Source of the DNA: an uncultured Acidimicrobiales bacterium
GTDB lineage: Bacteria; Actinomycetota; Geothermincolia; Fen-727; Anoxymicrobiaceae
NCBI GenBank assembly: GCA_964512645.1
Contig: CAZEJS010000001.1
Location: forward strand, 64,825 to 128,824
Length of the DNA stretch: 64,000 bases
Direction: 5' to 3'
Numbering within the stretch: position 1 is the first letter of the stretch; each line of letters starts with the position of its first letter. The notes beneath the pieces were generated by a model that made no database searches, had not been told where the DNA came from, and saw only the letters and a program-made list of their open reading frames with translations. Below, in pieces: positions 11,481 through 14,099 of this stretch. Made by a program: the position numbers and the translations under genes.

Positions 11481-11873
11481 TCAGAGCGTCCGTATGTAAT
11501 CGACAATATCCGAGGTCGGGGTGCCCGGTGTGAAGAGCATGGACACGCCTTTCTCCAGCAGCCGGGCGATGTCCTCCTCGGGGATTATCCCGCCGCCTAC
11601 CACCGCGATATCGTCGGCGCCCTTCTCCTTCAACATCTCCACAACCCGGGGGAACACCGTCATGTGGGCCCCGGAAAGCACCGATAGCCCCACCACGTCC
11701 ACGTCCTCGTCAATCGCCGCCCTGACGATCTGGTCCGGCGTCTGGTGCAGGCCCAGGTAGATGACCTCCATCCCCGCGTCCCGGAGCGCGCGGGCGACAA
11801 CCTTGGCCCCGCGATCGTGCCCGTCAAGCCCCGGCTTGGCTATGAGCACCCTGTGTGTCTTCTCGCTCAACTC
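11481..11873 (-). CDS. Cobalamin (B12)-binding domain protein; small subunit of a split acyl-CoA mutase
   Basis: B12-binding DxHxxG motif in [32 protein letters not shown]. Probable TTG start at 11873 (GGGGGAG, spacing ~6), 43 nt downstream of the large-subunit stop. Confidence 0.75.
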
Positions 11874-11916
11874 CGCTCCCCCGGCCCGGTGCGGTTCGGC
11901 GCCCCGGGCTGCTTCA

Positions 11917-13575
11917 TCAGTAGATGGGCTGTTCCCTGTACTCCCCGAACACTTCCTTGAGCACCCCCACGATCTCACCCAGGGTGAGGTGCGCCCGGGC
12001 GCAGTCGATTATCGCCGGCATGAGGTTGGCGCTTCCCTGTGCGCGGTCGCGCAGCTCCCCGCGGGCCCGGTCCGCCCCGGCCTCGCTCCTGCCCGCGCGC
12101 ACCCCGCGGACGTTCCCGACCTGCTCGCGCTCGAGCGCCGGGTCGATCTTCAGCAGCTCGATGCCGAGGCCCTCCCCCTGGTGGGCGAACCTGTTCACGC
12201 CGACGATGACGCGCTCGCCCTTCTCTATCTCCATCTGGTAGCGGTAGGCCGCGTCGGCGATCCGCCGCTGGAAGTAACCCTTCTCGATGGCCTCGAGCAC
12301 CCCGCCTTCGGCCTCTATCTCGTCGAAATAGGCATAAGCCTGGCGCTCCATGCGGTCGGTCAGGTGCTCGACGAAGTAAGAGCCCGCCAGGGGGTCCACG
12401 GTGTTGGTCACCCCGGTTTCGTAGGCGATGACCTGCTGCGTCCTCAGGGCGATCTCCACGGCCTTCTCGGTGGGGAGCGCCAGGACCTCGTCCATGGAAT
12501 TGGTGTGCAGCGACTGGGTCCCGCCCAGCACCGCCGCCAGGCCCTCGTACGCTGTGCGCACTATGTTGTTCTCCGGCTGCGGCGCGGTGAGCGAGCAGCC
12601 CGCCGTCTGGGTGTGGAACCTCAGCAGGAGGGACTCCTCCTTCTCAGCACCGAACCTCTCCTTCATCACCCTGGCCCAGATGCGCCTCGCCGCCCGGTAC
12701 TTCGCTATCTCCTCGAAGAAGTCGATGTGGGAGTTGAAGAAGAAGGAGAGCCTGGGGGCGAACTCGTCCACGTCCAGCCCCGCCTCGATACCCGCCTGCA
12801 CGTACGCCATCCCGTCGGCCAGGGTGAACGCCAGCTCCTGGGCCGCGGTGGAGCCCGCCTCGCGGATGTGGTACCCGCTGATGCTGATGGTGTTCCAGCG
12901 AGGGACCTCCCGGGCGCAGAAACCGAGGATATCGGTGATTATGCGCAGAGAGGGCCGGGGAGGGAATATCCAGGACTTCTGGGCGATGTACTCCTTGAGG
13001 ATGTCGTTCTGGATGGTGCCGCCGAGGCGGTCGAAGCGCGCCCCCTGTCTCTCGCCGGTCACCAGGTAGAAAGCCAGCAGGATGGCCGCAGGGGCGTTGG
13101 TGGTCATCGAGGTGGTGATGCCCTCCAGGGATATCCCCTCGAACAGGGTCTGCATGTCCACCACCGAGTCGATCGCCACCCCGCAGCGACCTACTTCCCC
13201 CTCGGAGAAGGGGTCGTCGGAGTCGCGCCCCATGATCGTCGGCATGTCGAAGGCTACGGAGAGCCCGGTCTGGCCCCGGCCGAGGAGAAACCGGTAACGC
13301 TCGTTGGTCTGCCGCGCGGTGCCGAACCCGGAGAACTGCCTCATCGTCCAGAGGCGGCCCCGGTACATGTTGGGCCTTATACCCCGGGTGTAGGGGTACT
13401 CCCCGGGAAAGCCGACGTCCCGGGCGTAGTCGCCGCCCTCGACGTCCGAGGGCCCGTAGAGAGGCTCGACGGGCTCGCTGGATACGGTTACGAACGGCCC
13501 CTCGCGCTCGGGCGCCGGAGTGTACGTCTCGGCGAGCCAGCGGCGGCGTTCGCCCTCGAAGCTGCCGTCGTCCAT
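11917..13575 (-). CDS. Methylmalonyl-CoA mutase-family large (catalytic) subunit, ICM-like signature
   Basis: Aligns by eye along its whole length to the MutB catalytic domain ([32 protein letters not shown]). It has Phe at the MutB Tyr89 position (TMRQF) and Gln at the Arg207 position (YIAQKSW). ATG at 13573-13575; the 693-aa track ORF is an upstream extension. Confidence 0.8.
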
Positions 13576-13577
13576 CT

Positions 13578-14099
13578 TCAGTACTCTATCCCTTCGCGCA
13601 GCGGCACGCCCCTGTCGTAGCAGTGCCTCACGTTCTTCATCTCGGTGATGAGGTCGGCGCGCTCGTAGAACTCGTCCGGCGCGTACCGGCCGGTGAGCAC
13701 CAGCTCCACCGTGGGGGGCTTCGAGTCGATGACCGGGAGGACCTCGTCGAGCGTCAGCACCCCCAGCTCGACGGCCACGCTTATCTCGTCCATTATCACG
13801 ATGTCGTACTCGCCGCCGGTCAGGGCCCGGCGCGCCTCCTCCAGGCCCTCGCGGGCAAGCCTGACGTCCTCGGCGGACGGCTCCCCCTTCTTGACGAAGG
13901 TGTCGAGGCCGGCCTGTGTGAGCACGAAGTCGCCGCCCAGCCTGGGCGCGGCGACCAGCTCCCCGTACTCGCGGCCCTTGAGGAACTGGACCATGCAAAC
14001 CCGCAGGCCTTTCCCGACCGCCCTCATCGCCAGGCCCAGCGCGGCGGTGGTCTTCCCCTTGCCGTCCCCGGTATAGACCTGGATGAGCCCCTGTTCCAT
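13578..14099 (-). CDS. cobO: Cob(I)yrinic acid a,c-diamide / cob(I)alamin adenosyltransferase (CobO/CobA/BtuR family)
   Basis: P-loop [23 protein letters not shown] and family-typical length (~173 aa). ATG 14099 preceded by GGAGGG. Its stop abuts the mutase large-subunit start (2-nt gap). Confidence 0.8.

Follow-up and report, generated by a model that had tools for sequence, protein, structure and literature searches.

A predicted isobutyryl-CoA mutase-type operon led by cobO in an uncultured Candidatus Geothermincolia actinobacterium

We analysed a 64-kb stretch of DNA (the window; contig CAZEJS010000001.1, positions 64,825 to 128,824) from an uncultured anaerobic Candidatus (Ca.) Geothermincolia actinobacterium, which its named homologues put near Ca. 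Anoxymicrobiaceae, and in particular a block of five same-strand genes on its minus strand (14099-9207). These genes encode a CobO-type corrinoid adenosyltransferase, the large and the small subunit of an adenosylcobalamin (AdoCbl)-dependent acyl-CoA mutase, a crotonase and an acyl-CoA dehydrogenase (ACAD). The mutase, here called M1 to distinguish it from a second one in the window (M2), is of the stand-alone, split type, and has at its two specificity sites the Phe/Gln pair described for isobutyryl-CoA mutase (ICM) rather than the Tyr/Arg pair of methylmalonyl-CoA mutase (MCM). Judging from the sequence, it is probable that M1 interconverts isobutyryl-CoA and n-butyryl-CoA and that its operon feeds beta-oxidation, with the cofactor adenosylated locally.

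The assignment of the specificity residues comes from HMMER alignments with the solved structures of human and Mycobacterium tuberculosis MCM. Phe81 of the M1 large subunit, within TMRQF, is aligned with the Tyr that ends the IRQY motif of both enzymes, and Gln199, within YIAQKSW, with the Arg of FMVRNTY, which correspond to MutB Tyr89 and Arg207, respectively. The original prediction had read Phe and Gln at these two sites from the letters alone; the alignment, in which Tyr and Arg were looked for, places Phe and Gln there as well. Ala108 stands at the position of Asp117 in HcmA, and the catalytic motifs SGYH, IQND, HTQT and HTNS of human MCM are intact in M1. The two specificity-determining sites are credited to Jost et al. 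2015 in PMC7238569.

To compare M1 with reference enzymes, taken from annotated plasmid records, we write each signature as the residues at the MCM Tyr89, HcmA Asp117 and MCM Arg207 sites, which gives F/A/Q for M1 and F/A/A for M2. The 2-hydroxyisobutyryl-CoA mutase (HCM)-type proteins of Methylibium PM1, Mycobacterium ELW1 and Aquincola, together with Xaut_5021, have I/D/Q, while Xaut_5043 of Xanthobacter autotrophicus Py2, which with Xaut_5044 is reportedly the characterised pivalyl-CoA mutase (PCM; Kitanishi et al. 2015), has L/L/N, with the motif ISLLPCC. M1 matches neither of these signatures, and is only 38% identical to Xaut_5043. Split MCMs, from Ilyobacter (with epimerase and decarboxylase genes as neighbours) and from Streptomyces plasmids, have Y/A/R; the Streptomyces plasmid matches had at first been candidates for IcmA.

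The same pair of residues divides the wider family. Of 81 homologues, which come from 80 genome loci in numerous phyla of bacteria and archaea and share 57-71% identity with M1, 53 have the F/A/Q signature and 28 have Y/A/R. None is mixed: Phe is always accompanied by Gln, and Tyr by Arg (F/Q and Y/R proteins, hereafter). All of the 120 nearest database homologues (73-100% identity) are F/A/Q, with the motif YIAQKSWI. We also compared profile hidden Markov models (HMMs) of the F/Q and Y/R proteins, from which both sites had been masked and the M1 clade excluded, with five-fold cross-validation. M1 scores 938 bits with the F/Q model and 869 bits with the Y/R model, a difference of +70 bits, and the cross-validation differences, +23 to +159 for F/Q proteins and -110 to -41 for Y/R proteins, form disjoint ranges. 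M1 is therefore an F/Q-family protein by evidence that is independent of residues 81 and 199. The masked-site test was used because neighbour-joining (NJ) bootstrap trees (105 sequences, signature columns removed) did not separate F/Q from Y/R at the deepest level; in these trees HCM, Xaut_5043 and M2 branch from within the F/Q sequences. The clade of M1, which consists of uncultured Geothermincolia F/Q proteins and L001, has bootstrap values of 100 and 85. A position inside the bona fide MCMs, the outcome that would have spoken against the original prediction, is thus not what we find.

The F/Q radiation is not uniform, and includes sub-variants with AFH.P, TMRMF or AQH/AQN. In one subgroup (L004, L041, L050, L062 and L069) His replaces the Asp of GLSVAFD[ML]P, giving AFH[MFY]P, and several of its loci carry cobO, MeaB and multiple ACAD genes; M2 and Xaut_5043 adjoin this subgroup in the NJ trees with low support. 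A homologue search with the actinobacterial F/Q protein L038 returned Gaiellaceae-like metagenome proteins with generic names only, and no Streptomyces IcmA.

The genes around M1 belong to short-chain acyl-CoA metabolism. The best matches of the ACAD in the Protein Data Bank (PDB) are the straight short/medium-chain and butyryl-CoA dehydrogenases 1UKW, 4L1F and 1BUC (335.6, 324.1 and 313.3 bits), and it is farther from isobutyryl-CoA dehydrogenase 1RX0 (237.4 bits) and from isovaleryl-CoA dehydrogenase (about 200-215 bits). The crotonase is Crt-like, its nearest structures being 3-hydroxypropionyl-CoA dehydratase 5ZAI and the Clostridium acetobutylicum-type Crt 5Z7R. Both genes had been seen downstream of the mutase in the original prediction, which proposed a module for branched or short-chain acyl-CoA rearrangement, and the likeness to butyryl-CoA dehydrogenase and Crt supports a short-chain one. 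Profile scans detected no epimerase, carboxylase or transcarboxylase among the neighbours of M1. Elsewhere the window encodes a thiolase, a second ACAD, a CoA-transferase, a BKACE protein and parts of an ADP-forming acyl-CoA synthetase.

The gene order is conserved among relatives. Two Geothermincolia loci (L082 and L083, with large subunits 85% and 80% identical to that of M1) keep the complete series of cobO, large subunit, small subunit, crotonase, ACAD, methyltransferase and hexapeptide transferase genes, and two others (L081 and L084, 73-74% identity) keep cobO followed by the large and small subunits, so that this leading order is present in all four Geothermincolia relatives examined. 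The gap between cobO and the mutase gene is 3 nt in L082, 4 nt in L083 and 145 nt in both L081 and L084. In L084 the mutase genes are followed by genes for a CCG-type Fe-S oxidoreductase, EtfB and EtfA, the type of electron outlet on which syntrophs rely when they oxidise butyryl-CoA. A CobO-type gene also lies directly 5' of the mutase gene in five F/Q loci of other phyla (L002, L004, L017, L041 and L050) and in one archaeal Y/R locus (L047), and ACAD genes are found near 9 of the 53 F/Q loci versus none of the 28 Y/R loci.

Two kinds of adenosyltransferase accompany these mutases. Those of the F/Q clusters (the window, L002, L004, L017, L041 and L050) are of the CobA/CobO type, which is unrelated to the PduO type found in the HCM clusters L085, L087 and L089, located on plasmids of Xanthobacter Py2, Methylibium PM1 and Mycobacterium ELW1.

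The same leading order is known from the cultured anaerobic syntroph Syntrophothermus lipocalidus TGB-C1, which isomerises isobutyrate to butyrate, so that isobutyrate enters beta-oxidation via butyryl-CoA (Narihiro et al. 2016, PMC5017805). Its genes Slip_0757 to Slip_0760 encode, in this order, an adenosyltransferase, the ICM large subunit, the small subunit and MeaB (PMC5017805). Compared by gene order and not by sequence, this cluster and the window operon have the adenosyltransferase-large-small succession in common; MeaB is the fourth gene in S. lipocalidus, whereas the window has crotonase and ACAD genes there and its MeaB gene 25 kb away, in the second mutase cluster.

The coordinates and the supporting profile matches of the block, and of the other cobalamin-related genes of the window, are listed in Table 1. 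The window has a G+C content of about 66%, and all five genes share a G+C content at third codon positions (GC3) of 0.85-0.94, which indicates that they are real genes and not chance open reading frames (ORFs). CobO has the P-loop GDGKGKTT and is homologous to the Salmonella CobA structures 1G5R and 4HUT (E 6e-25), and its ATG is preceded by the ribosome-binding site (RBS)-like sequence GAGGGAGG. As had been noted originally, the cobO stop abuts the mutase start: only AG separates the TGA ending at 13578 from the ATG at 13575. The claim of a separate B12-binding subunit of 131 aa holds for the separate subunit but not for its length, which is 129 aa from the TTG at 11870, no start codon giving 131 aa; this TTG has GGGGGAG 6-12 nt upstream, and the N-termini of orthologues were compared as well. 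The DxHxxG motif of the small subunit reads D16-G-H18-D-R-G21, with the His18 codon at 11819-11817. For the crotonase, the ATG at 11305, which has GGAGGTG upstream, is more likely to be the true start than 11320.

Table 1. Features of the five-gene block and other cobalamin-related genes in the window
Feature	Coordinates	Strand	Evidence and remarks
Terminator-like GC-rich hairpin, 11-bp stem, directly 3' of ACAD	9155-9183	-	Possible operon end
ACAD, short/medium straight-chain, butyryl-CoA dehydrogenase-like	9207-10397	-	Pfam ACAD N, M and C domains
Short-chain enoyl-CoA hydratase (crotonase)	10508-11320	-	PF00378 E 3.9e-59; likely start ATG 11305
B12-binding small subunit, 129 aa	11481-11870	-	Start TTG 11870; PF02310 E 1.3e-29; TIGR00640 171.7 bits (cutoff 57.45)
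Acyl-CoA mutase large (substrate-binding) subunit (M1), 552 aa, F/A/Q	11917-13575	-	PF01642 E 1.9e-217; TIGR00641 753.8 bits (cutoff 303.8)
Gln199 codon CAG, within YIAQKSW	12979-12981	-	Aligned with MCM Arg207
Phe81 codon TTC, within TMRQF	13333-13335	-	Aligned with MCM Tyr89, HcmA Ile90 and Xaut_5043 Leu
cobO stop/mutase start junction TGA-AG-ATG, 2-nt gap	13573-13580	-	Direct sequence reading
cobO, CobA/CobO/BtuR-type ATP:corrinoid adenosyltransferase, 173 aa	13578-14099	-	ATG 14099, TGA 13580-13578; PF02572 E 3.3e-62; TIGR00708 173.5 bits (cutoff 167.75)
M2 large subunit, F/A/A	32227-33909	-	
MeaB G-protein chaperone, sole one in the window, in second mutase cluster	38999-39964	-	PF03308 E 5.6e-88; TIGR00750 339.7 bits (cutoff 240.75)
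M2 small subunit	39961-40398	-	
NrdJ	48362-50569		NF006417 1107.5 bits (cutoff 961)

A promoter and terminator scan found no terminator-like site between cobO and ACAD; its total was not above the expectation from shuffled sequence, which makes the hairpin 3' of ACAD weak evidence for the end of an operon. No cobalamin riboswitch or other Rfam family reached the gathering score in the whole 64-kb window, upstream of cobO or in L081-L084, and the window nonetheless carries three AdoCbl enzymes and an adenosyltransferase. This count, with NrdJ as the third B12 enzyme beside two split mutases and a single adenosyltransferase among the roughly 50 window ORFs scanned, is the one given in the original prediction.

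In the mechanism that we propose, cobO, the icmA-like and icmB-like mutase genes, crotonase and ACAD would constitute a five-gene operon. The small subunit would hold AdoCbl in the base-off/His-on form via His18, and in the pocket of the large subunit Phe81 and Gln199 would take the place of the Tyr/Arg pair that grips the methylmalonyl-CoA carboxylate. Without these carboxylate-holding residues, the pocket should accommodate an uncharged C4 acyl group. Homolysis of the Co-C bond would drive the 1,2-rearrangement between isobutyryl-CoA and n-butyryl-CoA, and the latter would be converted by the ACAD to crotonyl-CoA and by the crotonase to 3-hydroxybutyryl-CoA, with thiolysis to acetyl-CoA as the last step. 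The outcome would be an anaerobic route for the carbon of valine or isobutyrate, through chemistry that is reversible.

CobO, presumably produced from the same transcript and probably coupled translationally to the mutase, would adenosylate cob(I)alamin with ATP in order to supply or repair the cofactor. Both the translational coupling and the dedication of CobO to the mutase are suggested by the 2-nt gap taken together with the conserved gene order. The MeaB of the second mutase cluster may be shared between the two mutases, and may gate the loading of the cofactor. A published model of AdoCbl delivery has the cofactor passed from adenosyltransferase to mutase under the control of a MeaB-type G-protein (PMC10481361).

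Several observations weigh against this interpretation, some of them concerning the substrate and others the operon. The link between the F/Q pair and ICM is drawn from published knowledge, and not from an alignment to a characterised ICM sequence. Overall identity does not discriminate, M1 being 60% identical to the Y/R split MCM of Ilyobacter and 59-71% identical to F/Q proteins, and the deep topology of the NJ trees is weak (28% bootstrap for the split between Y/R and the rest, 16% for strict monophyly of F/Q). The M1 clade has a Ser two residues past the Gln (AQKSW), in contrast to the Glu (AQKEW/Y) of HCM and of the majority of the remaining F/Q proteins. As for the operon, the Shine-Dalgarno-like GAAGGGA lies 13-19 nt 5' of the mutase ATG, a long spacing for a classical RBS, and spacers of 160-175 nt in front of the crotonase gene and of 110 nt in front of the ACAD gene make co-transcription uncertain. 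MeaB is not encoded within the operon. As enzymes of the CobA/CobO type double as the general adenosyltransferase in the biosynthesis of B12, a role dedicated to the mutase is tentative here.

The reaction could also serve biosynthesis, with n-butyryl-CoA converted to isobutyryl-CoA to provide valine by reductive carboxylation, primers of iso-branched fatty acids, or isobutyrate that is released as a product of fermentation. The mutase reaction can run both ways, and anaerobes have been described that isomerise the two acids reciprocally (Matthies and Schink 1992, as cited in PMC5017805); such a mutase has been proposed for isobutyrate-producing chain elongators (PMC7764203), and the thiolase, second ACAD, CoA-transferase and ADP-forming acyl-CoA synthetase genes of the window could run either way. 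However, profile scans found neither a 2-oxoisovalerate:ferredoxin oxidoreductase gene nor genes of fatty-acid synthesis adjoining the operon, and the EtfAB and CCG Fe-S oxidoreductase genes that follow the mutase in L084 are typical of oxidative butyryl-CoA metabolism. We therefore regard a biosynthetic physiology as unlikely, though it deserves consideration.

A second alternative, which we find distinctly unlikely, retains the F/Q enzyme but gives it another uncharged acyl-CoA, such as isovaleryl-/pivalyl-CoA, 2-methylbutyryl-CoA or another branched short-chain thioester, AQKSW then being the mark of a specificity variant. The clade-specific Ser, conserved in 118 of the 120 nearest homologues, and the occurrence of sub-variants within the F/Q family would be in keeping with this, and IcmF reportedly has side activity on isovaleryl- and pivalyl-CoA (Cracan and Banerjee 2012). 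Against it, the pocket of Xaut_5043 (the native pivalyl-CoA mutase) is very different from that of M1, the adjoining ACAD is more like straight-chain butyryl-CoA dehydrogenases than isovaleryl- or isobutyryl-CoA dehydrogenases, and the same gene order is found in S. lipocalidus, a demonstrated isobutyrate isomeriser. As an identity for M1, PCM itself was rejected on the contrast between F/A/Q and the L/L/N of Xaut_5043.

We also considered two more novel proposals, one being that the AQKSW clade is an F/Q specificity variant acting on a substrate other than isobutyryl-CoA, the other that CobO passes AdoCbl straight on to the mutase, with no cognate MeaB involved. The presence of cobO instead of a PduO-type gene in many F/Q mutase operons would follow from a direct hand-over by CobO; to our knowledge, such a hand-over has so far been documented for PduO-type enzymes only. 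We judge these proposals improbable.

An HCM identity is suggested by the top PDB match of M1, HcmA 4R3U (E 1.9e-174; 49.5% identity), but is very hard to reconcile with the remaining data: M1 has Phe81 and Ala108, at positions where all four HCM-type sequences have Ile and Asp, these four form a clade of their own with 100% bootstrap, and HCM clusters contain genes for a 2-HIBA-CoA ligase and for an adenosyltransferase of the PduO type, neither of which is present at the M1 locus. The split MCM of the public annotation ('methylmalonyl-CoA mutase family protein') is effectively refuted by the sequence, in spite of strong matches to generic models (PF01642, TIGR00641, NF006944) and of the resemblance to the genuine Ilyobacter enzyme flanked by epimerase and decarboxylase genes, given that the NF006944 equivalog score of 631 bits is below the cutoff of 876, that Tyr89/Arg207 are replaced by Phe/Gln, that the masked-site difference of M1 is opposite in sign to that of every Y/R protein (-41 or lower), and that the profile scans detected no MCM-type neighbours.

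Interconversion of isobutyryl-CoA and n-butyryl-CoA is thus the activity that we favour, and M1 can be set beside the known enzymes on this basis. IcmA and IcmB of Streptomyces cinnamonensis, the type split ICM, are likewise separate subunits, the large one of about 550-570 aa and the small, B12-binding one of about 130-140 aa, and the published specificity residues of that enzyme, F80/Q198, are in their numbering almost co-linear with F81/Q199 of M1. The Streptomyces icmA and icmB genes are unlinked and serve the supply of polyketide precursors, whereas the icmA-like and icmB-like genes of the window are adjacent to each other and lie beside cobO and beta-oxidation genes. IcmF (4XC6), in contrast to the split M1, is a single chain made up of a small-subunit, a MeaB and a large-subunit part; the same F/Q determinants are reported for it (Jost et al. 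2015), and the same chemistry is expected. Its similarity to M1 is much lower: its model NF045497 aligns over M1 residues 52-548 with 337 bits, below the cutoff of 1500, and in the PDB search M1 scored 277 bits with IcmF versus 584 with HcmA.

HcmAB is the closest solved structure, and resembles M1 in being split, in having Gln at the Arg207 site and in having an adenosyltransferase in its cluster. It differs by Ile90 and Asp117, for which M1 has Phe and Ala, and by a cluster with a PduO-type adenosyltransferase, a CoA ligase and MeaB, where M1 has CobO. The two-subunit layout is also common to the split MCMs of the archaeal/anaerobe type (57-62% identity to M1), including that of the Ilyobacter polytropus pILYOP01 cluster; this one, however, has Y/A/R and is surrounded by genes for MeaB, an epimerase, a carboxyltransferase and a Na+-decarboxylase.

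The second mutase of the window is more unusual than the M1 operon. M2 has Phe at the Tyr89 site, as does M1, so that the differences between the two are at other positions, among them the Arg207 site; there M2 has Ala, neither Gln nor Arg, within the motif QNDTFCRDVAANVRV. The M2 subfamily is conserved and sharply delimited, and is characterised by the motifs TIRQFMGFGD, GLNVA[YF]D[ML]P and QND[ST][FI]CRDVAANVRV. These are kept, the Arg207-site motif exactly or nearly so, by 83 of the top M2 homologues, down to 62% identity, which are from Ca. Anoxymicrobiaceae and Thermodesulfobacteriota, and the next matches, at 57% identity or less, are ordinary F/Q or Y/R proteins. As no MCM, ICM, HCM or Xaut_5043 reference shares its signature, M2 may represent an uncharacterised specificity class.

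M2 is surrounded by ACAD, thiolase/DUF35, crotonase, aldehyde:ferredoxin oxidoreductase (AFOR) and OYE-like genes. The loci of three M2 homologues (L092, JGI 3300060601; L093, GCA_900174565.1; L094, GCA_040756235.1) contain MeaB, the small subunit and several ACADs, together with thiolases with DUF35/OB_ChsH2 partners, crotonase, AFOR and OYE-like reductases, and in L094 a single cluster holds two distinct pairs of mutase genes. These clusters look like a degradation pathway for a branched or unusual acyl-CoA. In the window, M2 is part of a long same-strand cluster (20305-40975, minus strand) which also encodes TetR, GlcD-like FAD proteins, CCG/Fe-S proteins, crotonase, SDR, ferredoxin, an AFOR N-domain protein, an Hdr-like FAD/Fe-S protein, parts of an NMT1-type ABC transporter and, of an ADP-forming acyl-CoA synthetase, the alpha part. 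In L082 and L083, the region upstream of cobO shows synteny with the distal portion of the cluster.

Two further features lie between the block and the M2 cluster. A 1.7-kb segment of lower G+C (0.62) separates cobO from an L,D-transpeptidase gene (14100-15791); the corresponding distance is about 230-250 nt in L082 and L083, and the segment, which contains an ORF (14255-15589, plus strand; GC3 0.72) with only a weak HtpX/M48-like match, may be an insertion. The other feature is the gene of an S8 subtilase of 1035 aa (17045-20152, minus strand), whose propeptide resembles that of fervidolysin and whose C-terminus is like DUF5719. It is flanked by the YkuD gene on one side and the acyl-CoA synthetase cluster on the other, a position at which L082 and L083 lack it.

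The enzyme class, the specificity residues and the order of adenosyltransferase and mutase genes have all been described before, the last of these in an isobutyrate-isomerising syntroph, and beyond the re-annotation the M1 operon is routine; its host belongs to a little-studied class of uncultured Actinomycetota. The main practical value is in correcting the public annotation of M1 and hundreds of its relatives from 'methylmalonyl-CoA mutase' to ICM-type. The ICM-type reading alters metabolic reconstructions of uncultured anaerobes, in which isobutyrate or valine carbon would be routed via butyryl-CoA and not along the propionate/succinate route. For Ca. Geothermincolia, it adds a plausible capacity for the catabolism of branched-chain fatty acids, or for the formation of isobutyrate, in an organism whose reliance on AdoCbl is evident from its genes.

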